The notes under the pieces are model-generated. The model was given only the letters and a program-made list of their open reading frames with translations, did not search any database and had not been told where the DNA came from. From an uncultured virus (IMG/VR IMGVR_UViG_3300028797_000153) (taxonomy: Duplodnaviria > Heunggongvirae > Uroviricota > Caudoviricetes): a stretch of 64,000 nt of DNA. Below, piece by piece: positions 1 through 54,367 of the stretch. Positions within the stretch are counted from its first letter, which is position 1. Every line of letters begins with the position of its first letter. The position numbers were made by a program, and so were the translations under genes. The stretch lies in IMG/VR virus record IMGVR_UViG_3300028797_000153; one strand, given 5' to 3'.

Positions 1-10
1 CCACCATTAT

Positions 11-85
11 GGGCCGATAGTTTAATTGGGAAAACACCCGCCCTGCAAGCGGGAGTTACGGGTTCAATTCCCGCCGTGTCCACCA
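11..85 (+). tRNA. tRNA-Ala(TGC)
   Basis: Cloverleaf, anticodon loop CC-TGC-AA (C33), G3:U70, CCA end. Confidence 0.85.
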
Positions 86-90
86 TTAAT

Positions 91-165
91 GCCCCTGTAG
101 TATAATGGCTATTACAGTTGTCTTGTAAACATCAGAAGGCCGTTCGATTCGACCCTGGGGCACCA
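91..165 (+). tRNA. tRNA-Thr(TGT)
   Basis: Cloverleaf, loop CTTGTAA, CCA. Confidence 0.9.
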
Positions 166-170
166 TATAT

Positions 171-247
171 CCGGGATTGGCTCAGTTTGGTAGAGCACTT
201 GATTTGGGATCAAGGGGTCAAAAGTTCAAATCTTTTATCTCGGGCCA
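171..247 (+). tRNA. tRNA-Pro(TGG)
   Basis: Cloverleaf, loop TTTGGGA, CCA. Confidence 0.9.
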
Positions 248-252
248 TAAAT

Positions 253-328
253 GGGGCCATAGCTCAATTGGGAGAGCGCCACATTAGCATTGTGGAGGTT
301 GCGAGATCGTCCCTCGTTGGTTCCACCA
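253..328 (+). tRNA. tRNA-Ala(AGC), A34
   Basis: Cloverleaf, loop TTAGCAT, atypical T-loop ATCGTCC, CCA. Confidence 0.85.
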
Positions 329-332
329 TTAT

Positions 333-451
333 AGAACCTGTGCTTATTTCTAATAGGGCAAGCAGGTTGTCGCTGGTTCGAATCCAGCCTTCCCAACCAT
401 TATCGGGAAGTAGCTCAGTTGGCAGAGCACCCGCAAAATATTAGCCAGGTC
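333..451 (+). ncRNA. Y-RNA-like module 1 with circularly permuted tRNA body
   Basis: ACCTG-T-GCT-TATTTCT ... AGC-CAGGT closing stem; inside: T arm, CTTCCCA-ACCA, spacer, CGGGAAG, D arm. Confidence 0.8.
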
Positions 452-456
452 AAATT

Positions 457-532
457 GCACTCTTAGCTCAGCTGGGAGAGCGACTGCTCGACGTGCAGTA
501 GGTCATAGGTCCGAGCCCTATAGAGTGCACCA
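457..532 (+). tRNA. tRNA-Val(GAC)
   Basis: Cloverleaf, loop TC-GAC-GT (atypical), CCA. Confidence 0.85.
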
Positions 533-559
533 TTAAATTCATAGAAGGAGAAAAAGATT

Positions 560-640
560 ATGATGAATTTAACCAAAAAGATTAAAAATATAAGAAAAAC
601 CAAAAGAATTGGTTTCTTTCATCATGGCTTAATTAGTTAG
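560..640 (+). CDS. Leader peptide 1 (Lys/Arg-rich, 26 aa) MMNLTKKIKNIRKTKRIGFFHHGLIS
   Basis: AAGGAG RBS; followed by terminator; 3' end complementary to terminator 5' arm. Confidence 0.75.
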   Translation: MMNLTKKIKNIRKTKRIGFFHHGLIS

Positions 641-663
641 TAAAAAACTTAAATTAATAGTTT

Positions 664-698
664 ATGCTGGGTAGTTAAGTCTGCTCAGCATTTTTATT
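664..698 (+). terminator. Attenuator terminator 1
   Basis: ATGCTGGGTAG/CTGCTCAGCAT 11-bp stem + T tract. Confidence 0.8.
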
Positions 699-703
699 AA
701 ATT

Positions 704-780
704 GCCCCCATAACTCAACTGGATAGAGTAACGGTCTTCTAAACCGTAAGTTGAAGGTCCGAGTCCTTCTGGGGGCGCCA
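704..780 (+). tRNA. tRNA-Arg(TCT)
   Basis: Cloverleaf, loop CTTCTAA, CCA. Confidence 0.92.
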
Positions 781-782
781 TT

Positions 783-841
783 AGAGCCTATACTTATTTC
801 TAGCTTCAAGCAAACAACTTTTAATTGTTCATAGTTAGGCC
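783..841 (+). ncRNA. Y-RNA-like module 2 carrying a Lys(UUU) anticodon stem-loop
   Basis: GCCTA-T-ACT-TATTTCT ... AGT-TAGGC; internal AACAA-CTTTTAA-TTGTT. Confidence 0.75.
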
Positions 842-845
842 ATAT

Positions 846-923
846 GGGTCCATAACTCAGTTGGATTAGAGTACGAAACTTTTAATTTCGGAGTCGAGAG
901 TTCGAGTCTCTCTGGACCCACCA
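846..923 (+). tRNA. tRNA-Lys(TTT)
   Basis: Cloverleaf, loop CTTTTAA, CCA. Confidence 0.92.
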
Positions 924-927
924 ATAT

Positions 928-1005
928 GCACCCTTAGCTCAGTTGGCTAGCAGCACTACACTTTTAATGTAGGGGTCCTGGGTTCGAGTCCCAGAGGGTG
1001 CACCA
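928..1005 (+). tRNA. tRNA-Lys(TTT), second divergent copy
   Basis: Cloverleaf, loop CTTTTAA, CCA. Confidence 0.9.
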
Positions 1006-1008
1006 TAT

Positions 1009-1085
1009 ACCTCCTTAACTCAACTGGTTAGAGTACTTGCCTCTTAAGCATGGAGTTCTGGGTTCGAGTCCCAGAGGAGGTACCA
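1009..1085 (+). tRNA. tRNA-Lys(CTT)
   Basis: Cloverleaf, loop CTCTTAA, CCA. Confidence 0.9.
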
Positions 1086-1100
1086 TTAAAATAAATATAT

Positions 1101-1110
1101 TGTATAATAT
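1101..1110 (+). promoter_or_regulatory. TGTATAATA -10 promoter motif (host sigma-A type); further copies near 1339, 2083, 3022, 5883, 8227, 9605, 11971, 15183, 18297, 19295, 22645, 26165, 34252, 43265
   Basis: Recurrent intergenic motif containing the TATAAT consensus, often just after a terminator and before a gene. Confidence 0.75.
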
Positions 1111-1115
1111 ATTAT

Positions 1116-1191
1116 GCCGGCTTAGCTCAGCTGTTAGAGCAACGCACTAGTAATGCGTAGGTCGGGGGTTAGAGTCCCTCAGCCGGCACCA
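1116..1191 (+). tRNA. tRNA-Thr(AGT), A34
   Basis: Cloverleaf, loop CTAGTAA, T-loop TTAGAGT, CCA. Confidence 0.88.
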
Positions 1192-1193
1192 TC

Positions 1194-1302
1194 AGAGCCC
1201 ATGCTTATTTCTTTCGGCTTCTAACCGGGTGGTCGTTGGTTCGAATCCAACCGTTCCAGTTGGAACGTAGCTCAGTGGGAGAGCACCTTATTTAGCTGGG
1301 CC
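1194..1302 (+). ncRNA. Y-RNA-like module 3: complete circularly permuted tRNA-Arg(UCU) mimic
   Basis: GCCCA-T-GCT ... AGC-TGGGC stem; order anticodon arm (CTTCTAA), T arm, loop-closed acceptor CGTTCCA/TGGAACG, D arm. Confidence 0.85.
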
Positions 1303-1355
1303 AAAACTAAAAAACTATATTATTTTAAGATTTTTCAATGTATAATATAGTGCAT

Positions 1356-1430
1356 CCTCCTGTAGCTCAACAGTTAGAGCGGGCGCCTTATAAGCGTCAT
1401 ACCTTGGTGCGACTCCAGGCAGGAGGACCA
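1356..1430 (+). tRNA. tRNA-Ile(TAT)
   Basis: Cloverleaf, loop CTTATAA, CCA. Confidence 0.85.
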
Positions 1431-1446
1431 ATAATAAAAAATATAT

Positions 1447-1460
1447 GCTAAATTAAAATG
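1447..1460 (+). promoter_or_regulatory. GCTAAATTA motif, putative phage-specific (late) promoter; also at 2114, 14832, 29248, 34777, 41389, 47883, 47979, 51501, 55207, 61929
   Basis: 11 exact intergenic copies seen, mostly at starts of virion-gene operons. Confidence 0.7.
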
Positions 1461-1475
1461 CGAGGAGAGAACAAA

Positions 1476-1562
1476 ATGATGATTAGAAGAAGTTATCAAT
1501 TGAGCCAATTATCAGGTTTATGTGGTCATAACCAATTTTTGTTTTACTCCAATCGCGATTAA
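1476..1562 (+). CDS. Leader peptide 2 (Gln/Leu codons, 28 aa) MMIRRSYQLSQLSGLCGHNQFLFYSNRD
   Basis: GAGGAG RBS; TCCAATCGC (1548-1556) complementary to terminator arm GCGATTGGA. Confidence 0.75.
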   Translation: MMIRRSYQLSQLSGLCGHNQFLFYSNRD

Positions 1563-1594
1563 ATAGAATAAGCTTAAAGTATAATATATAATTT

Positions 1595-1633
1595 AATGAG
1601 CAGCGATTGGAAAAATTGTTGCTCATTTTATTT
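1595..1633 (+). terminator. Attenuator terminator 2
   Basis: AATGAGCAGCGATT/AATTGTTGCTCATT 14-bp stem + T-rich tail. Confidence 0.8.
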
Positions 1634-1659
1634 ACAAAGCAAAAATTCTATGGTATAAT
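1631..1659 (+). promoter_or_regulatory. Sigma-A-type promoter
   Basis: TTTACA-17 nt-TATAAT with upstream TG. Confidence 0.7.
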
Positions 1660-1668
1660 ATTAAATAC

Positions 1669-1743
1669 AGGGAAGTAGCCAAGTGGTAAGGCATGAGACT
1701 TTGACTCTCACATTCGAAGGTTCGACCCCTTCCTTCCCTGCCA
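1669..1743 (+). tRNA. tRNA-Gln(TTG)
   Basis: Cloverleaf, loop CTTTGAC, CCA. Confidence 0.92.
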
Positions 1744-1745
1744 AT

Positions 1746-1830
1746 GCTCTGGTGGTGGAACTGGCATACACATGGCACTTAAAATGCCACGCCGTAAGGA
1801 TTGAGAGTTCAAATCTCTCCCGGAGCACCA
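1746..1830 (+). tRNA. tRNA-Leu(TAA)
   Basis: Cloverleaf with long variable arm, loop CTTAAAA. Confidence 0.92.
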
Positions 1831-1834
1831 TTAT

Positions 1835-1911
1835 GCTCCTCTAGCCCAACTGGCAGAGGCAATAAGCTCAAAACTTATTCAGTCTGAGTTCGAATCTCAG
1901 GGGGAGTACCA
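1835..1911 (+). tRNA. tRNA-Leu(CAA), short variable loop
   Basis: Cloverleaf, loop CTCAAAA, CCA. Confidence 0.85.
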
Positions 1912-1913
1912 TA

Positions 1914-2035
1914 AGAGCCTATGCTTATTTCTTAAGGACTGAAAATCCGCGTGTAGGTGGTTCAACTCCATCCCTTCCCGCCAAATATTTGGGAAGTGTA
2001 GCTCACCGGTAGAGCAGCGAACTATTAGCTAGGCC
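1914..2035 (+). ncRNA. Y-RNA-like module 4: circularly permuted tRNA-Phe(GAA) mimic
   Basis: GCCTA-T-GCT ... AGC-TAGGC; GGA-CTGAAAA-TCC, T arm, CTTCCC-GCCA, spacer, GGGAAG, D arm. Confidence 0.85.
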
Positions 2036-2152
2036 AAAAAATAAAAAATTTCAGAAATATATTTACAATTAATTAAAAATGTTGTATAATATATGTGAGC
2101 GTTAAAAATATACGCTAAATTATAATGGCGCAAAGCTAGGAAGGAAAAGATT

Positions 2153-2269
2153 ATGCAAAAACTATCTATCATGTCCCTTAATCGTGAACATAGTGATTCA
2201 GTATATTTCGGTTGCTGGAATATTTTTGCTACCATCGGATCATCTAGTTTTGAGCAGGTTAATGAATAA
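2153..2269 (+). CDS. Leader peptide 3 (38 aa) MQKLSIMSLNREHSDSVYFGCWNIFATIGSSSFEQVNE
   Basis: AGGAAGGA RBS; 2235-2250 pairs 16 bp with 2297-2312 (terminator 5' arm). Confidence 0.75.
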   Translation: MQKLSIMSLNREHSDSVYFGCWNIFATIGSSSFEQVNE

Positions 2270-2301
2270 ATAAATTAAAAACATTAACAAAAAATGAAAT
2301 T

Positions 2302-2332
2302 AGGTGGTCTGAATAAGATCACCTTTTATTTT
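2302..2332 (+). terminator. Attenuator terminator 3
   Basis: AGGTGGTCT/AGATCACCT stem + TTTATTTT. Confidence 0.8.
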
Positions 2333-2335
2333 ACT

Positions 2336-2421
2336 GGGTAGGTGGTAGAGTGGTCAATTACACCTGACTGTAAATCAGGCGCCACAGGCTTACGGTGGTT
2401 CGAATCCATCCCTGCCCACCA
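2336..2421 (+). tRNA. tRNA-Tyr(GTA)
   Basis: Cloverleaf, long variable arm, loop CTGTAAA. Confidence 0.92.
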
Positions 2422-2426
2422 GATAT

Positions 2427-2502
2427 GTGGACGTGAATCTGACGGTTTAGATGCTAGTCTGTGAAACTAGATTACTGAGTTCAACTCTCAGACATCCACC
2501 CA
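2427..2502 (+). tRNA. tRNA-His(GTG) with encoded G-1
   Basis: Loop CTGTGAA; G2427 opposite discriminator C. Confidence 0.85.
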
Positions 2503-2506
2503 AAAT

Positions 2507-2596
2507 GGTCTATTAGCTCAGTCTGGTAGAGCGGCCGACCAAAGTGTCGGTGACAAACAGCGCGCGAGTGCATTGGTTCAAATCCAATATAGACCA
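2507..2596 (+). tRNA. Atypical tRNA-like gene (8-nt anticodon loop CCAAAGTG, long unpaired variable region, no encoded CCA)
   Basis: GGTCTAT/ATAGACC acceptor, normal D and T arms. Confidence 0.65.
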
Positions 2597-2604
2597 TCGT
2601 ATAT

Positions 2605-2679
2605 GCTCCCATAGACAAGCGGTTAAGTCATGCGCCTTTCACGCGTATATCGCCGGTTCGAATCCGACTGGGAGTACCA
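2605..2679 (+). tRNA. tRNA-Glu(TTC)
   Basis: Cloverleaf, loop CTTTCAC. Confidence 0.9.
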
Positions 2680-2683
2680 AAAT

Positions 2684-2760
2684 GGGTCATTAGCTCAGCT
2701 GGTGGTAGCGACTGACTGTTAATCAGTAGGCCGAAGGTTCAAGTCCTTCATGACCCGCCA
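2684..2760 (+). tRNA. tRNA-Asn(GTT)
   Basis: Cloverleaf, loop CTGTTAA. Confidence 0.92.
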
Positions 2761-2764
2761 ATTT

Positions 2765-2838
2765 CCAGGCATAACTCAATGGTAGAGTGCACGACTGATA
2801 ATCGTGATATCTTAGTTCAATTCTAGGTGCCTGGACCA
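2765..2838 (+). tRNA. tRNA-Ile(GAT)
   Basis: Cloverleaf, loop CTGATAA. Confidence 0.9.
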
Positions 2839-2841
2839 TAT

Positions 2842-2915
2842 AGGAGTTTGGTATATTGGCCGTGCCTTGGTCTCCAAAACCAATGAAGTGAGTTCGATTC
2901 TTACAACTCCTGCCA
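2842..2915 (+). tRNA. tRNA-Trp(CCA)
   Basis: Cloverleaf, loop CTCCAAA. Confidence 0.88.
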
Positions 2916-2917
2916 AT

Positions 2918-2996
2918 GGCCCTGTAGCTCAGCCGTGGTGAGAGCACTGGTCTGAAAAACCAGGTGTCGGCGGTTCGACTCCGCCTGGGGCCACCA
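2918..2996 (+). tRNA. tRNA-Phe(GAA)
   Basis: Cloverleaf, loop CTGAAAA. Confidence 0.92.
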
Positions 2997-3046
2997 AATA
3001 GTTAATTTATTATAGATTAACTGTATAATATTATGTATTGCAACAT

Positions 3047-3123
3047 TGCGGGGAAGTGTAACGGTTTGCATCTGAGGCTCATAACCTCAGGGTAGTGAGG
3101 TTCAACTCCCACCCCCGCGACCA
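3047..3123 (+). tRNA. tRNA-Met(CAT), initiator-like
   Basis: TGCGGGG/CCCCGCG acceptor with weak 1:72 pair, loop CTCATAA. Confidence 0.82.
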
Positions 3124-3199
3124 GGACCGTTGGTGTAGCGGTTTACATGTCACACTGTCACTGTGAAGATGACGGGTTCGACTCCCGTACGGTCCGCCA
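3124..3199 (+). tRNA. tRNA-Asp(GTC)
   Basis: Cloverleaf, loop CTGTCAC. Confidence 0.92.
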
Positions 3200-3202
3200 C
3201 TT

Positions 3203-3287
3203 AGAGCCTATACTTATTTCTTAATGGTTATAGAAGGTTCGATTCCTTCACCGCCCTCTAACCCAGGGCAGTGATATTAGTTAGGCC
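3203..3287 (+). ncRNA. Y-RNA-like module 5 (T arm + acceptor-like hairpin)
   Basis: GCCTA-T-ACT ... AGT-TAGGC; GAAGG-TTCGATT-CCTTC then GCCCT/AGGGC. Confidence 0.75.
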
Positions 3288-3349
3288 AAAAAATTATTAT
3301 TTATAAAGGAGATTAAGTTTATGTAAGTATTAAAAAGGAGGGCATAACA

Positions 3350-3601
3350 ATGAGTTATAGCCGCAAACAATTTGATAAACATAAACTTAAAAAACTTGCC
3401 CATGATAGCTGTAATGGCTGGAAAGGCGGAGCTTATTATGACAGAAGAAAAACCTGTTATAGACGCTACTGGAAAAGTCATGGACATACTTCAAGATATA
3501 CTTATTATAAAAAGTATTATCACAAAAGAATGCGAAGATTTATTAACAAGTATGGTTGGTATTCTAAAAAGGAATTTGATATAATCTGGACTTGTTGGTA
3601 A
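3350..3601 (+). CDS. Small basic hypothetical protein
   Basis: AGGAGG RBS, 83 aa, K/R/Y-rich. Confidence 0.7.
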   Translation: MSYSRKQFDKHKLKKLAHDSCNGWKGGAYYDRRKTCYRRYWKSHGHTSRYTYYKKYYHKRMRRFINKYGWYSKKEFDIIWTCW

Positions 3602-3608
3602 AATAATT

Positions 3609-3684
3609 AGCTGGGTGGCCAAGTGGTTAAGGCACAAAGTTCATACCTTTGGGATCGTCAGTTCAAATCTGACCCCAGCTACCA
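3609..3684 (+). tRNA. tRNA-Met(CAT) (elongator Met or Ile2)
   Basis: Cloverleaf, loop TTCATAC. Confidence 0.82.
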
Positions 3685-3686
3685 TC

Positions 3687-3748
3687 AGAGCCGATACTTA
3701 TTTCTGTCTAGAGACAATTTCCTGCCACGAAATCCATATAGTTCGGCC
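3687..3748 (+). ncRNA. Y-RNA-like module 6 carrying a Gly(GCC) anticodon stem-loop
   Basis: GCCGA-T-ACT ... AGT-TCGGC; internal ATTTC-CTGCCAC-GAAAT. Confidence 0.75.
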
Positions 3749-3756
3749 AATAATAT

Positions 3757-3830
3757 GGCTTCTTAGTTTAAAAGGAAAACTGGATCCTTACAAGATCAGG
3801 ACGGTGGAGCGTTACCATCAGAGGCCACCA
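3757..3830 (+). tRNA. tRNA-Val(TAC)
   Basis: Loop CTTACAA, atypical T-loop AGCGTTA, CCA. Confidence 0.8.
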
Positions 3831-3835
3831 AATAT

Positions 3836-3910
3836 GCGGACGTAGGACAATGGTTAGTCCACTAGCTTGCCATGCTAGATATACGGGTTCGATTCCCGCC
3901 GTCCGCTCCA
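3836..3910 (+). tRNA. tRNA-Gly(GCC)
   Basis: Cloverleaf, loop TTGCCAT. Confidence 0.92.
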
Positions 3911-3915
3911 CCGAA

Positions 3916-4049
3916 GTGACTCTTCCTTATATCGTAAAGAATAAGCGGGTATTGCTTACCTGGGTCCAAAGCAACGGTTAAGCTGGCATTACCGAGAGTG
4001 CCAGAGAAGGTGTCTGTGGTTCACCTGAGGAGTTAGTCACCAAACCACA
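3916..4049 (+). ncRNA. Unidentified multibranch RNA with 3' pseudoknot
   Basis: GTGAC/GTCAC closure, four internal hairpins, loop TGTGGTT pairs with 3' AACCACA. Confidence 0.6.
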
Positions 4050-4053
4050 ATAC

Positions 4054-4128
4054 GCGGGTATCGTCCAATGGTTAGGGCCTCTGCCTTCCAAGCAGAAGAT
4101 ACCGGTTCGACTCCGGCTACCCGCTCCA
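4054..4128 (+). tRNA. tRNA-Gly(TCC)
   Basis: Cloverleaf, loop CTTCCAA. Confidence 0.92.
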
Positions 4129-4155
4129 TACTAAAAATAATTAAGGAGAAAAAGT

Positions 4156-4251
4156 ATGAAAACAATGAATTCACGAAGTCTAAGTTGTGGTCGCTGTAGT
4201 AGCAGTTGTTTTCATTCACTCAATTTTCTCCCAGTAGCTCAATCGGATTAG
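4156..4251 (+). CDS. Leader peptide 4 (Ser/Cys/Arg-rich, 31 aa) MKTMNSRSLSCGRCSSSCFHSLNFLPVAQSD, overlapping tRNA-Arg(ACG)
   Basis: AAGGAG RBS with the same AGGAGAAAAAG context as leader 1. Confidence 0.65.
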   Translation: MKTMNSRSLSCGRCSSSCFHSLNFLPVAQSD

Positions 4252-4305
4252 AGCATAACACTACGAATGTTAAGGTTGCAGGTTCAAGTCCTACCTGGGA
4301 GGCCA
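4228..4305 (+). tRNA. tRNA-Arg(ACG)
   Basis: Cloverleaf, loop CTACGAA. Confidence 0.92.
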
Positions 4306-4306
4306 A

Positions 4307-4381
4307 GCTTTGGTAGCCAAGTGGTTAAGGCCTCGGTCTGCAACACCGATATCGCGGGTTCAAATCCCACCCAAAGCTCCA
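4307..4381 (+). tRNA. tRNA-Cys(GCA)
   Basis: Cloverleaf, loop CTGCAAC. Confidence 0.92.
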
Positions 4382-4386
4382 TATTT

Positions 4387-4474
4387 GGAGGCATGGAGTA
4401 ATGGTATCTCAATACCCTGCTAAGGTATCCATCGGGCAACTGATGTCCGCGTTCGAATCGCGGTGCCTCCGCCA
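4387..4474 (+). tRNA. tRNA-Ser(GCT)
   Basis: Long variable arm, loop CTGCTAA. Confidence 0.92.
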
Positions 4475-4489
4475 AATGAAAGGATTTTT

Positions 4490-4795
4490 ATGAAAGTGTA
4501 TTTTATAGCTACAGCAAATAATATTAAAAAAGATAAGCTCGGTTGGATAGACTGGGGCAAATCACACAGAGTTGTTGGCTTTTTTGATAATTTAGAAGAT
4601 GCTAAAAAGGCTGTTGAAGATAATTGGTGTGATCTATATGAAAATGGCTACTATAAATATGCTATTATAGAAGAAAGGGAAGATGGTCTATACTCTACTT
4701 GTGATAATCCTATTTTCTATAAGTGGGAAGATGGTGGCTATAAAAAAATAAAAAGGCCAAGAGCAACTTATGGATTCTGTAATTTCACAATTTAA
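4490..4795 (+). CDS. Hypothetical phage protein
   Basis: GAAAGGA RBS before ATG 4490; the track start lies inside the tRNA. Confidence 0.8.
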   Translation: MKVYFIATANNIKKDKLGWIDWGKSHRVVGFFDNLEDAKKAVEDNWCDLYENGYYKYAIIEEREDGLYSTCDNPIFYKWEDGGYKKIKRPRATYGFCNFTI

Positions 4796-4796
4796 T

Positions 4797-4880
4797 ACCC
4801 AGATGGTGGAATGGTAGACACCCGTGGCTTAGAACCACGTGCCGAAAGGCGTGCAGGTTCAAATCCTGTTCTGGGTACCA
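4797..4880 (+). tRNA. tRNA-Leu(TAG)
   Basis: Long variable arm, loop CTTAGAA. Confidence 0.92.
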
Positions 4881-4900
4881 ATATAATAAAGGACTAATTT

Positions 4901-5653
4901 ATGTATTTTAAAATTCCAGAAGCTTTTATTAGAAACAGACGTGAATTATTTGCATTAATGGTTGCAACAGTTTCATCTATTCATGTAATTCAGCAACAAA
5001 TAGATACAACTAATTTAACTATTTCAGAAATGCAAGAATTTTTAGCTAAAAAAGGCTTTATAAAAGTTGTTCCAGATAAACCTACTACATTACAAGAGCT
5101 AATTAATAAGCTAGATATCGCAAGTACAGCTTTTGTTAAATTAGCAAATAATAAATATATTGGAATAGTTGCAAATACATATTATTATACAGAAAACTTA
5201 GACAGTATAAAAGTTGCTGAATATTATTTAAATACTGAATATGGCCACAATCTTAAATATAAATGTATAAAATGTGGAAATTGTTGTCGTGTATATGGCT
5301 CAAATGGTGGCGTAATATTTTCTGAAGAGGATATTAACAAAATAGAACAAAATACACCATATACAATTCGTGATAAAGTTGTATTGGTATCTAATAAAAG
5401 TAATAAAAAACTATATCATCTTAGCCTTAAAAATAACCAATGTGAGTTCTTAGATAAAGATAATAGTTGTAAGCTAATTAATACATTATCTGTTAATTGC
5501 CAACTACCTGTAATTTGTTATTTATTTAGAGCTGGTCGTGGTGCAGGTATTAATTTCTTTAGCTGCCCAGGTATTGGATTGCCTGATGGTGATAACTGGG
5601 ATATATTAGATGTATTTAATTGGATTGATAAATATTGTAAAGAATATCAATAA
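4901..5653 (+). CDS. YkgJ/CxxCxxCC cysteine-cluster protein
   Basis: KCIKCGNCC ... CEFLDKDNSC ... PVICYLF motifs. Confidence 0.7.
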   Translation: MYFKIPEAFIRNRRELFALMVATVSSIHVIQQQIDTTNLTISEMQEFLAKKGFIKVVPDKPTTLQELINKLDIASTAFVKLANNKYIGIVANTYYYTENLDSIKVAEYYLNTEYGHNLKYKCIKCGNCCRVYGSNGGVIFSEEDINKIEQNTPYTIRDKVVLVSNKSNKKLYHLSLKNNQCEFLDKDNSCKLINTLSVNCQLPVICYLFRAGRGAGINFFSCPGIGLPDGDNWDILDVFNWIDKYCKEYQ

Positions 5654-5654
5654 T

Positions 5655-5737
5655 GCGCAAGTGGTGGAATTGGTATACACGCAGGTCTAAGAAGCCTGTG
5701 CTTCGGCATAAGAGTTCAAGTCTCTTCTTGCGCACCA
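5655..5737 (+). tRNA. tRNA-Leu(AAG), A34
   Basis: Long variable arm, loop CTAAGAA. Confidence 0.9.
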
Positions 5738-5740
5738 TAT

Positions 5741-5827
5741 GGAGGGTTGTGATAATTGGTAGTCGGGCTGTCTTGAAAACAGTTGGGTCGCAAGGCCTTT
5801 AGGGTTCGAGTCCCTAACCCTCCGCCA
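5741..5827 (+). tRNA. tRNA-Ser(TGA)
   Basis: Long variable arm, loop CTTGAAA. Confidence 0.92.
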
Positions 5828-5908
5828 TATAAAAGTTTATTAAAAAATCATATTAAAAGTATGGTTTTTTTCTTTTTATAACTGTATAATATTACGAGGT
5901 GTTTTATT

Positions 5909-10782: not shown

Positions 10783-11380
10783 TAGTTCCACCACCTGGTA
10801 CTGAATGTTGTTTGATAGTGAGCTGTGGTCAATATAAAAATATTGCAAGAGAAAGACGGCATAACAGCAATAACACAAAATAATCCGTCTCTCATTAATA
10901 TGTGTGTATCTATCAAGTAAGTGGACTACCTCAGCCTATTAAACGTCAGTTTAGCCTAAAGCTATTAATTAATAGGTAATTAACCAAGATTAAAATTGCG
11001 AAAACACTTATAGAAATATAAGCTACTTGGTATAGAGAGTGATAAAGCCAGGGAACTCCAGCCGTTATGGTTGCAAGGAGGGTTGAGCCTCCCGTCTGTT
11101 AATCGAAAAAGCCGGACTTCGCTAGTCTTGACGTTAAAGAACATCGATTCCGTTATAGTGTCTGGTAAAACTACAAAGAGAGCACAGGAGTTATACGTCG
11201 ATAGCCCATTTAGAGCGTTTGTGGGAATTGGGTAAGAAACTAACCGTGGAAATGTGCAGAGTCGGTGAAAACGTATATCCCAAGGCAATGTAAGAATTAT
11301 AGTAGGCCAGCCTGGCTGTTGATCATAGTTCTCGGGTAACGTTGTCCCTGTTCACAATGTCTTGTACTAACATTGTTTTT
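10783..11380 (+). ncRNA. Large ROOL/GOLLD-like ncRNA candidate, apparently circularly permuted
   Basis: ~600 nt with multiple stems and pseudoknots; blocks CTGAATG, ATGTGTGTATC, CTCAGCCT, GTGGAAATGTGCAG resemble ROOL as I recall it. Confidence 0.45.
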
Positions 11381-11475
11381 CTAATAAAATATAATAGGAT
11401 TTATATCCATGGCGATAAATCGTAAATCCTGGTTGCCTTCAAGTCCGAAATGACGTTAAACTATGGAGGTATAGA

Positions 11476-11706
11476 ATGTTAGGATTTACACTTTATGGAA
11501 CAACAGATGTTCCACATGAATATTACGTTTATGCTGATGGTGTAGATTGTAAACCAGCTTACTTCTTAACTAGAAAAGAAGCCGAAATCTACATGAATAA
11601 TTATGCTTCTTCACATGGTATTCAATTAGAATGCACTGAATGTGATAAGCATGAGCGTAAATATTCTAATCATAAGGGTGTTAGATTTTATATTAATAGA
11701 ATTTAA
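11476..11706 (+). CDS. Hypothetical protein
   Basis: GGAGG RBS, 76 aa. Confidence 0.7.
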   Translation: MLGFTLYGTTDVPHEYYVYADGVDCKPAYFLTRKEAEIYMNNYASSHGIQLECTECDKHERKYSNHKGVRFYINRI

Positions 11707-11936: not shown

Positions 11937-12012
11937 TTTTTATTTTTTTATTTACTTTTAAAATTTTTATTGTATAATATTAATGTGGATGAAAACTGAA
12001 AGGATCCACAAT

Positions 12013-12067
12013 AGAGCCGATACTTATTTCTGGTTATTTATAAGAATGTGTTAAAAACAGTTCGGCC
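12013..12067 (+). ncRNA. Y-RNA-like module 8 in the leader of the TerD-fusion gene
   Basis: GCCGA-T-ACT-TATTTCT ... AGT-TCGGC. Confidence 0.75.
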
Positions 12068-51538: not shown

Positions 51539-54367
51539 ATGACTACTTATGCAGCATATAATTTAAATGAAGATATTAGAAAAAAGAGTTCCTCAGGGGG
51601 AGTTTTTTACGAATTAGCTAAATATACTATTGAACATGACGGCTATGTTTTTGGAGCAGCTTGAAATAAAGATTGATTTGTTGATATATGTTATATTAAG
51701 AAGCTAGAAGACTTACCAAAATTAATGGGGTCTAAATATGTAAAAGCTGATAATAAAAATACTTTTAAAGAATGTAAAGAATTTTTAGATTCTGGAAAAC
51801 AAGTTTTATATTCTGGTACTCCTTGTCAAATATATGCATTAAAATTTTTCCTTAAAAAAGATTATGATAATTTATTAACTGTTAGTGTTGCTTGTTTTGG
51901 GACTACTCCGCTTGTTGTTTGAAAAGACTACTTAGAAACAATTAAAAGACCAGATGCTGAAATAACAGAAATAAACTTAAGAGATAAATCTGATACTAAT
52001 TGAAATAATTATAAATATACTATTAAATATTCTGATGGAAAAATAATCTCAGAAAACCATTTAAATAATAAATATTCAAAAGCATATATAAGTGCTGGTT
52101 ATTTTAATAAACCATGTTATAATTGTATAGCCAAAAAAGAGTTAAAATCTGATATTTCTATTGGTGATTTTTGAGGAGTTCAAGAAGCTTTGCCAAAAAT
52201 TGATGCAAAGCTTGGAGTTAGTTTTATTATCTGTAACTCAAACAAAGGTGAAAAGATTATTAAAGCTCTTAATAATCTAAAGCTTGAAGAAATTAAAGAT
52301 ATAAATAAAGTTAAAAAATTTAACCGTGGAATTCAAGAGACTCCAGGAACTAAAGAGACTACTTATAATAAAAATATTTTTAGGAAAAAAGTAGCAATAG
52401 TTACAATGAATTTACATTTTAATATTGGAACAGCTTTACAAGCTTATGCCTTACAAAAAGTTATTTTAGATAATGGTTATGATTGTGATGTAATTACATG
52501 AGCTCGTAAAGATAGACTTCATTTTTGTGATACCTATATTAAAATGAGAATTTTACCTACTGCACAAGATTATGATAAAATAAAAGAATCTGACTATGAT
52601 ATATTTGTAGTTGGTAGTGACCAAATTTGGAGAAAAAACACTAGTTTAAAAGACTATAAAGAAAACTATATTAATTACCCATTTTTAGGATTTACTGCCA
52701 ACTGAAGCAAAGTTAGATTTTCATATGCAGCTTCATTTGGAACTTCTTGACAATATGATAAAGCAGAAGACGAAAAAATAACAAATATTTTAAAGCAATT
52801 TAATGCACTATCTACCAGAGAATTAAGCTCAATTATAGACTGCGAAGATAAGCTTGGCCTAAATTTTGAGCAACATATTGACCCAACTATGTTGCTAAAC
52901 AAAGAAGACTACCTAAAGCTTTGTTCAAATATTACTGCAAATCATAATAAAAATATTTTTAAATATATTTTACATGAGACAACAGATAAAACTAATTTTA
53001 TTAATGAAAAAGCAAAAAAATTAGGATTACCAATAACTACACATAATAAACTATATGTGGTAGACTGGCTTGCTAAGATGCGTGATACTAGTTTAGTAAT
53101 TACAGATTCTTTCCATGGTGTGATTTTTTCTATTATTTTTAATAAACCATTTATTTACTGAAATACTAGAGACAGTGGTAAAGCTCGTTTTGAAACTATT
53201 GAAAAATTATTTAATATCCAGAATAGACAAATTAAAGATAATTTTACTATTACTGATGAATTGCTTAAACCGGCTAATATTAATTTAAATAATAACAGAC
53301 AAAAAAGTTTGGATTATATATTAAAAAATTTGGCCGCTGTACCACAACAATTAACTATTAACCTTTCACAAAATAAATTAAACTGGCAAAAAAATAATAA
53401 ACAAGCCTGAATGTTATTTTTAAGCTCAGATAACTATATTTATTATGTATTAAATGTTTATAAAAATTTATTAGATCACAATACTAAATATGCAGTATGC
53501 TGTGGTTATACAGAAGATGTTAGTCAAACAACTGTTAATATATTAAATAAATGTGGGATTATTACCTTTAAACTTGATACTAAAGCTATTTTGCATGAAA
53601 ATATTAAACTTAGGGGCATATCTAATTGAATTAAAGCTTTTACAAAACTTGGCTTATTGAAGAACCAGCTTAATTTAGATAAAATGATCTATCTAGATTC
53701 TGACTTAGGAATTTATGATAATATTGATGAATTATTTAATAAGCCACATATGAGTGCAGTGCTAGATGGTGCGCCACTTCCAAATAGAAAACCTGGACCA
53801 TATCAAATTGGAGATTCTATTTTTTGTTCTGGTCTGTTTGTTTGAGATTTTAAGAATAATAATAATGATGCTAATAAATTATTACAATTATTACCAAAGC
53901 TTCCAAAAGATGTAGAATGACATGACCAAAATGTTTTAAACTACTACTATAAAGACTGACAAAATCAAAAAAATTTACATTTAGATTATACATATGGTCT
54001 TATGACTACTATTCCTAAATTTAAATTTGTTAACCCAGTTAGAGGTAAAAACTGACCTAAAGTTATACACTATATAGCTGGCCAAGGTGAGAAAACAAAA
54101 ATACCATTTATAAATCAAAAATTTAATCTTCAAAGTTGATGTGATATGCTATTAATAGATGATTACTATACTGAAATAAATAATAGCATTATTGCATTAA
54201 AACAATTATATGATTTTGATTTGCCTCTTATTAGTACTCAAAATATTGTACATAAAAAAGCAGATAAAATTGCAGCCAAAGAAGAAACTATAAAGTGAGC
54301 AGAAATAGAACAAAAGAAAAAAGATATACGTGCAGATGGCAGACCAAATACTTACCTATATTTTTAA
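51539..54367 (+). CDS. Fusion of FrhB-like (F420 hydrogenase beta) + polysaccharide pyruvyltransferase + GT8 glycosyltransferase, 942 aa (17 TGA=Trp)
   Basis: SSSGGVF, GSKY, SGTPCQI, SDISIGDF-W-G; VGSDQIW, SYAASFG, TDSFHG; YLDSD, DQNVLN, VIHY; one open frame under code 4. Confidence 0.88.

Follow-up and report, generated by a model that had tools for sequence, protein, structure and literature searches.

A short open reading frame (ORF) in the tRNA array of an uncultured phage starts behind a Shine-Dalgarno (SD) sequence, carries codons that match the tRNAs encoded downstream, and ends inside the gene for tRNA-Arg(ACG) with no terminator on the way. This element, leader ORF 4, is a real and conserved feature. 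We propose that it is a leader-peptide sensor whose output would be tRNA folding and 5' maturation rather than termination, a reading built on sequence and modelling to which we give an even chance of being right. Maturation of the tRNA-Arg would then probably depend on ribosomes that stall because cognate tRNAs are scarce. To judge from sequence, many unrelated phages have a similar mini-gene that runs into a lysine tRNA, and a ribosome path that ends on a tRNA 5' end is the common core of such overlap leaders.

Leader ORF 4 and the tRNA array around it

The stretch of DNA analysed here (the window; 64,000 nucleotides) is part of a large tailed phage, with genes for portal, head protease, major head and tail sheath proteins, Thg1 and RNA ligase, and a terminase is found in it when it is read under genetic code 4. 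The best sequencing-run matches for this phage are bovine gut metagenomes. TGA encodes Trp in several long genes, and code 4 joins ORFs between 19340 and 61906 (terminase, an SbcD-like protein, a head-tail adaptor and others). There are 17 TGA codons within 51539-54367, and many other genes have none. CGG is absent from the long genes of the phage, and a tRNA with anticodon TCA is present in the related loci L002, L016, L023 and L108.

The tRNA array fills positions 1-5827, where ARAGORN finds 30 genes and Rfam 32 tRNA matches. All 32 Rfam matches are tRNAs, and no T-box or other Rfam riboswitch was found in the window. The array contains four short SD-led ORFs (Table 1), of which leader 4 alone lacks a terminator. 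Leaders 1-3 have one each, whereas no terminator-like site was found within 4129-5900 or in the homologues of leader 4, which bears out what an earlier note on this DNA had said of the window. A near-identical contig of 273 kb carries one further terminator-type leader just 5' of the window. In leaders 1-3, an antiterminator appears in RNA of nascent length only and is weakened or lost once a modelled ribosome passes codon 22-26 (in leader 3 it falls from 1.0 to 0.04 past codon 26); at equilibrium these leaders do not switch, with a terminator probability of at least 0.85. As the earlier note had also stated, leader ORF 4 (product MKTMNSRSLSCGRCSSSCFHSLNFLPVAQSD) ends within the D arm of the tRNA. 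Its TAG stop (4249-4251) forms nucleotides 22-24 of tRNA-Arg, at the border of the D loop and D stem. Among contigs of the sequencing runs X3, X4, X5 and X20, one of 160 nt (X4) spans 4181-4325 with 4 differences. The single RNA run gave contigs of other tRNAs and nothing at the leader, and like the other small-share runs it carries no weight as evidence.

Table 1. Positions of leader ORF 4, its hairpin, the neighbouring tRNA genes and the sibling leaders in the window
Feature	Position	Strand	Remarks
Sibling leader 1	560..691	+	ORF 560-640, terminator 664-691
Sibling leader 2	1476..1627	+	ORF 1476-1562, terminator 1595-1627
Sibling leader 3	2153..2324	+	ORF 2153-2269, terminator 2302-2324; heads the block that holds leader 4
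tRNA-Gly(TCC)	4054..4128	+	delimits, with its 3' end, the 99-nt leader of pre-tRNA-Arg; type B has the same neighbour
Shine-Dalgarno AAGGAG and A run	4143..4152	+	AAGGAG at 4143-4148, 7 nt 5' of ATG
Leader ORF 4	4156..4251	+	31 codons, no terminator; last 8 codons within tRNA-Arg
Start-codon hairpin, 5' arm	4156..4165	+	ATGAAAACAA
Sensor codons 6-22	4171..4221	+	14/17 are Ser AGY/TCA, Arg CGA/CGC, Cys TGT, Leu CTA/CTC
Start-codon hairpin, 3' arm	4206..4215	+	TTGTTTTCAT, 10/10 pairs; type B differs by one A>G wobble change
RNase P site region	4224..4231	+	leader -4 to tRNA +4; complementary to SD
tRNA-Arg(ACG)	4228..4305	+	overlapped by leader ORF 4
tRNA-Cys(GCA)	4307..4381	+	1 nt 3' of tRNA-Arg
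tRNA-Ser(GCT)	4387..4474	+	
tRNA-Leu(TAG)	4797..4880	+	matched by leader CTA
tRNA-Leu(AAG)	5655..5737	+	matched by leader CTC
tRNA-Ser(TGA)	5741..5827	+	matched by TCA twice; final tRNA of the array

The codons of leader ORF 4 match the downstream Arg, Cys, Ser and Leu tRNAs, as had been noticed earlier, and the match extends further, to Leu(AAG) through CTC and to Ser(TGA) through two TCA codons. Six tRNAs, Arg(ACG) and all those that follow it in the array, together read 14 of the 23 codons that precede the tRNA, against a background of 9.3% for these codons among 15,190 phage codons (binomial p 1.3e-9). The match was reached by 0/100,000 base shuffles, and the other two frames of leader 4 hold only 1/22 and 3/22 matched codons. 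If only tRNA-Arg were controlled, the Cys, Ser and Leu codons would be left without an explanation.

A diverged form of the leader, type B, is 74% identical to the window type over the leader region and occurs in L032, L025, L108, L109 and L111. Its peptide, MKTMKLSRLSCRSCKACFRCLSINTALAQLD, again has 31 codons with the stop at tRNA nucleotides 22-24. The length of the frame is preserved by compensating 3-nt indels, the start hairpin is kept with one wobble pair, the body of tRNA-Arg is different, and there is no terminator. Here 16/23 codons are matched (p 3e-11), and of 42 SD-led short ORFs from 57 loci with at least four tRNAs, the leader-4 types take the top two ranks. The codons track cluster content, in a comparison of two types only: type B has tRNA-Ile(TAT) in its cluster and ATA in its leader, and has neither tRNA-Ser(TGA) nor TCA. 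Of the metagenome loci located through the Cys tRNA, 5/5 have the Arg-Cys pair with the leader and 0/5 a terminator; one of the five is truncated by a contig edge, and another is almost the same as the window. Leader 4 was found in two sequence types only. In viral contigs, the Cys-tRNA pattern gave 4 matches (1 real) and a leader-start pattern 8 matches (2 real).

The test of conservation that the earlier note had put forward thus shows leader ORF 4 to be conserved, the diverged relative keeping its frame and length. The same note had offered a deletion of the terminator, leaving a constitutive allele, and had suggested comparing relatives for a lost segment. As a recent or neutral event, such a deletion is not supported: the diverged relative keeps the length, the stop, the start hairpin and the absence of a terminator, and the comparison of relatives gave 0/5 loci with one. 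We also considered an intrinsic terminator hidden in an alternative fold, and rejected it: the only candidate is a weak 6-bp hairpin 3' of the Cys tRNA in type B, which is absent from the window.

Several other observations concern the array and its relatives. Repeated AGAGCC...CTTATTTCT...GGCC elements, which served as a search anchor, lie at 331, 783, 1194, 1914, 3203 and 3687, and some contain tRNA halves in swapped order with the 3' half first (e.g. 1914-2035). A scan of genome contigs for the handle element gave 49 loci, 2 of them with at least four tRNAs and no host among them. The motif GCTAAATT (at 1447, 2114, 14832, 29248, 34777, 41389, 47883, 47979, 51501, 55207 and 61929) precedes leaders 2 and 3 and several late-type genes and is a candidate phage-specific promoter; sigma-70-like TGTATAAT sites occur within the array, and a promoter-like site at 1631-1659 lies directly 3' of the leader 2 terminator. 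A tRNA-like gene at 2506-2598 has an abnormal anticodon loop and receives no assignment from ARAGORN, and similar unassigned genes occur in related loci. Between two Gly tRNAs, the 143-nt non-coding stretch 3911-4053 is without an Rfam match at gathering score, and type B has other sequence at the same place. An A at the tRNA wobble position is unusual in bacteria; such tRNAs are found at 253 (Ala AGC), 1116 (Thr AGT) and 5655 (Leu AAG), with Ser(AGA) additionally in type B. In L108, a putative tmRNA gene (11166-11547; recognised by eye) lies within the tRNA block behind the leader 4 variant. A blastn search of 3600-4900 against cultured phages returned tRNA-sized matches only (44 records), and a pattern for the protein encoded 3' of Ser(GCT) gave 10 matches and 0 confirmed relatives.

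Predicted pairing over the RNase P site and modelled ribosome positions

The perfect pairing of 4156-4165 with 4206-4215 that the earlier note had pointed out is confirmed: ATGAAAACAA is the exact reverse complement of TTGTTTTCAT, and both arms (10/10 pairs) are paired in the computed fold. In ribosome-free RNA the stem is predicted to run on 5' of the start codon, where GGAGAAAA (4145-4152) pairs with 4224-4231. The SD would thus pair with leader -4 to tRNA +4, so that SD, AUG and RNase P site are predicted to be buried together. This modelled invasion of the acceptor strand by the hairpin itself had been overlooked. The fold of 4129-4234 has a z score of -3.4, with 0/200 shuffles equally stable, and a hairpin covering leader nucleotides -1 to -4 is predicted in both the window and type B. 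In type B, too, the predicted stem spans the RNase P site, with other letters and from a position 5' of the SD (z -4.9).

Pairing over the RNase P site gains -9.3 kcal/mol in the window, and -8.1 in type B, when tRNA nucleotides 1-7 are added; exchanging leader and tRNA between the two types drops the gain to -2.1 and -2.0 kcal/mol. Compared with 431 other tRNA 5' ends, 3 are as good for the window leader and 19 for the type B leader. For the type B leader, three further tRNA starts give pairing of equal strength (-7.9 to -8.8), and its leader-to-tRNA pairing is not very specific.

We then placed ribosomes, with a footprint of 30 nt, on the leader in an energy model that has neither a tertiary term nor kinetics. 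When the modelled ribosome has moved past codon 20, the acceptor strand is covered; with the ribosome on codons 2-7 or 16-20 the strand remains free, and for codons 2-7 the acceptor stem is free with a probability of 0.75-0.93. On codons 8-14, which are the main sensor codons, a single ribosome leaves the window acceptor stem invaded (0.07-0.2), and the stem recovers (0.94) when codons 8-14 and the SD are both occupied, as by a queued ribosome. The one-ribosome model therefore fails at codons 8-14, which is a real gap in the reading that we favour. In addition, the matched codons 21-23 adjoin the tRNA, so that a stall there would cover it. In type B, L023 and L016, the complete tRNA fold prevails at ribosome-free equilibrium (0.76, 0.96 and 0.86), and the off state in these would need to be kinetic.

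The mechanism that we envisage is as follows. With no ribosome on the leader, the stem would form before the 3' half of the tRNA is made, and the cleavage site would be hidden (off). With cognate tRNAs plentiful, ribosomes would travel as far as the D-arm stop, mask the cleavage site and unfold the acceptor and D stems (also off). If the Ser, Cys, Arg or Leu codons become slow, through starvation or a host anticodon nuclease that cleaves tRNA, ribosomes would stall and queue on codons 2-20. These stalled ribosomes would occupy the 5' arm and set the tRNA free, and RNase P could mature tRNA-Arg (on). The net effect would be negative feedback of the tRNA on its own maturation. More tentatively, the off state might spread to the adjacent Cys and Ser tRNAs through mispairing. 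Local processing leaves unexplained the codons for the distal tRNAs (two Leu and Ser(TGA), at a distance of 0.5-1.5 kb).

The earlier note had named, as its second option, ribosome passage that blocks tRNA folding or RNase P processing. This has become our favoured reading on the strength of the codon match, the overlap and the conservation, and the mechanism is a step that we infer. Feedback on maturation is favoured because CGA, one of the leader codons, is slowly decoded in Salmonella (PMC4046918) and because a buried leader blocks RNase P in an engineered switch (see below).

Overlap leaders in related and unrelated phages

Three further ORFs in the 57-locus scan reach into a tRNA, namely the Lys leaders of L002 and L023 and the Phe leader of L016. 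All three lie directly 3' of another tRNA, lack a terminator and stop in the D arm, and their SD-AUG spacers are complementary to the acceptor strand (13 bp in L002); in L023, spacer and acceptor strand change together. Ranked against 431 tRNA 5' ends, L002 stands at about 2-3/431, L016 at 0/431 and L023 at 16/431 as a duplex, the L023 pairing being weak in the full fold (72/431). The duplex ranks of 12 terminator-type leaders range from 22 to 398 of 431, none clearly below 5%. The codon match of L016 alone is not significant (p 0.087), and other tRNA-stopping ORFs in the scan show no codon match (p 0.49-1). Behind a homologue of leader 1 in L018, an atypical tRNA with a CCT anticodon (11960-12035) has a 5' end complementary to the leader SD (22/431).

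An initial search with the start of the Lys leader gave 12 matches, 5 of which run into tRNA-Lys. A looser viral pattern (ATG, then Lys, Arg and Lys codons, 40-70 nt and a Lys anticodon arm, by which the MKRK start is imposed) gave 42 viral loci, with tRNA-Lys(UUU) at the match in 40/42. After removal of duplicates and of 2 tRNA-less loci, 31 distinct MKRK leaders were left. An SD is present in 29/31, and the stops lie at tRNA nucleotides 1-39 in 25 leaders, at -5/-6 in 2 and at -26 to -33 in 4. The same pattern with a tRNA-Asn arm, used as a control, yielded 5 matches and 0 SD-led intergenic ORFs. The SD-led MKRK starts are 32-50 nt 5' of the tRNA. None falls in the range of 23-31 nt, which by our reckoning the pattern also permitted; this spacing fits a ribosome that is stalled at K2-K4 and leaves the RNase P site free. 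The unit of MKRK leader and tRNA-Lys(UUU) was found in contigs of 30-64% G+C, and a leader-tRNA unit measures about 130-180 nt. Several MKRK-led tRNA-Lys genes have no close downstream tRNA (1415 and 2226 nt), and control of such isolated genes must be local.

A general leader-to-tRNA pairing in the Lys leaders was rejected, since only 2/31 distinct leaders rank below 5%, both of them from the related phages, and the median rank of the whole-tRNA duplex is 0.6. In-frame stops in the Lys spacers (7, versus 4 and 37 in the other frames) are not clearly depleted. Among unselected Lys(TTT) genes, an MKRK-type leader precedes 2/20, and none was found in T5 or in 10 hand-picked cultured-phage tRNA loci out of 679 records matched. 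Unlike the MKRK phages, T5 has a 55-codon gene that ends directly 5' of its tRNA-Lys (T5.065; L220 12241-12408), and a ribosome terminating at its abutting stop would cover the RNase P site. Other arrangements include a 9-codon ORF that ends at -1 of tRNA-Lys in Mycobacterium phage Colt; MKRKC or MKRKR ORFs with the stop 26 nt 5' of the tRNA in L179, L194 and L201; and a third Lys leader layout in L164 and L166, where ORFs for MKRKSAKL and MKRKSGKH are followed by a long hairpin, tRNA-Lys(CTT) and tRNA-Lys(TTT).

The codon CGA recurs in these leaders. It accounts for 7/10 Arg codons in five overlap leaders versus 0/23 in terminator leaders, although these sequences are not independent, and for 5/15,190 phage codons overall. 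CGA is found in both leader-4 types and in L016, and it is codon 3 in 27/31 Lys leaders, where a second CGA tends to lie no more than 15 nt from the tRNA (13/110 codons there versus 2/127 farther off). The idea that CGAA pairs with the T loop was dropped, as inspection by eye showed no TTCG in the T loop of either Arg type.

We give slightly less than even chances to the broader proposal that phages widely use terminator-less mini-ORFs overlapping tRNA 5' ends as ribosome-operated maturation switches, in which RNase P would cut only upon a stall at the tRNA's own codons. Leader 4 would be the Arg/Cys/Ser/Leu version of such a switch, and MKRK-tRNA-Lys(UUU) a minimal sensor of attack on lysine tRNA by a host anticodon nuclease.

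Alternative explanations and known systems

A polar step is what the distal Leu and Ser codons would require, and no terminator was found. Control of the whole six-tRNA block could nevertheless be polar if ribosomes unfold tRNA-Arg and Rho or RNase J, a 5'-to-3' exonuclease, then acts, with loss of transcription or of RNA further downstream, unless a stall prevents it. We consider this main rival unlikely, although it would account for codons that match all six tRNAs, with CTA, CTC and TCA fitting tRNAs up to 1.5 kb off, and that follow cluster content in type B. In L193 and L205, leaders ahead of Lys, Arg, His and Phe tRNAs likewise contain His and Arg codons, together with Phe codons in L205, and a stall at any codon, including the tRNA-proximal ones, would protect. 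Mispairing might also pass along the block like dominoes, as the 3' half of the first tRNA pairs with the next tRNA at a rank of at most 0.125 in 10/15 overlap-leader pairs versus 3/30 controls. However, this comparison is confounded by same-isotype pairs, and the Arg-to-Cys ranks are only 0.05-0.11. The host may lack Rho: the phage reads TGA as Trp, a code that points to lineages often without it. Rho was missing in all 100 Mycoplasmatota and 30% of Bacillota examined (PMC11347177), and its RNA-binding domain is absent in 3/3 related phage records searched. Moreover, C and G are about equally frequent downstream (59:57), promoter-like sites precede the distal tRNAs (4858-4887 and 5625-5654; in L108, the Cys and Ile tRNAs flank a TTTACA...TATAAT element), and isolated tRNA-Lys genes have such leaders too.

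It is improbable that the leader is an unregulated helper, in which ribosome loading merely opens the inhibitory stem or shields the precursor 5' end and the codons are irrelevant to output. The predicted stem of SD and AUG does cover the RNase P site, and in the model any ribosome on codons 2-7 frees the acceptor to the extent given above. Yet such a helper has no need for a codon match at p 1e-9, for the synonymous choice of AGY, CTA/CTC and CGA, or for the specificity of MKRK to Lys over Asn tRNAs.

We regard as a little more improbable still a relic of a terminator-type attenuator, its terminator deleted and the block now constitutive. The ATG-to-tRNA distance is 144-206 nt (terminator included) in the siblings versus 72 nt in leader 4, and the 5' end of a type B terminator-type leader weakly resembles leader 4 (10/300 shuffles equal, for the best of 7 compared). 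This likeness hints, weakly and at the level of sequence, at a possible ancient origin of leader 4 from a terminator-type leader. A relic is at odds with the survival of frame, length, stop and hairpin at 74% identity beside a replaced tRNA-Arg body, with pairing re-matched to each tRNA, with the 0/5 homologous loci that have a terminator, and with the existence of separate overlap leaders. Finally, it is very improbable that the peptide itself is the product, as a Cys-rich metal binder or basic peptide, or that the ORF is a chance occurrence: type B has CxxCxxCxxC, but Cys spacing differs in the window type, selection is seen on synonymous codons, the C-terminus is set by the tRNA sequence, and chance did not reproduce the codon match in any shuffle.

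If maturation control by a leader peptide is correct, it would be a third output of such control besides termination and translation initiation, one that acts on RNA folding and processing, and a tRNA gene would double as an mRNA that gauges the supply of its own product. It would also bear on why phages carry tRNAs, as slow-codon feedback fits the replacement of depleted or cleaved host tRNAs over steady codon compensation. A literature search, with most subscription journals outside its scope, found no natural case of such a leader. The output of leader 4 (tRNA folding and processing) is probably new, and its mechanism is one that we infer.

Multivalent leader-peptide attenuators include the trp, his, thr and ilvGMEDA leaders, with tnaC as a Rho-dependent type. 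Leaders 1-3 of the phage have their full anatomy. Leader 4 shares with them an SD-led ORF rich in supply-relevant codons (as described for the his leader; PMC4046918), a 5' hairpin predicted to form without a ribosome and, as proposed here, a stall that means on. It is thus attenuator-like on the input side and falls outside the class, having neither terminator nor antiterminator; its ORF ends within a tRNA gene, its products are tRNAs, and the competing fold appears to be the tRNA's own acceptor stem. One of its two nearest analogues on the output side is the rbfL leader of Staphylococcus aureus, a tiny upstream ORF with slow Arg codons that senses tRNA supply via ribosome occlusion and needs no terminator (PMC13009471). 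There the ribosome-binding site is occluded and a stall means off, whereas in leader 4 the tRNA 5' end is occluded and an early stall should mean on. The T5 tRNA-Lys counters the PARIS defence (PMC11464382), which offers a reason for sensing when tRNA-Lys(UUU) is lost, and it is this tRNA that the widespread MKRK leader precedes. The other analogue on the output side is a synthetic theophylline riboswitch in which a hairpin that buries the proximal pre-tRNA leader (nucleotides -1 to -4) blocks RNase P (PMC7897497). Common to both is a hairpin over the proximal 5' leader, which decides cleavage of the pre-tRNA in the synthetic switch and is proposed to do so in leader 4. The theophylline switch is engineered and driven by a ligand, whereas leader 4 is natural, would be driven by ribosomes, and has a stem predicted to enter the acceptor strand.
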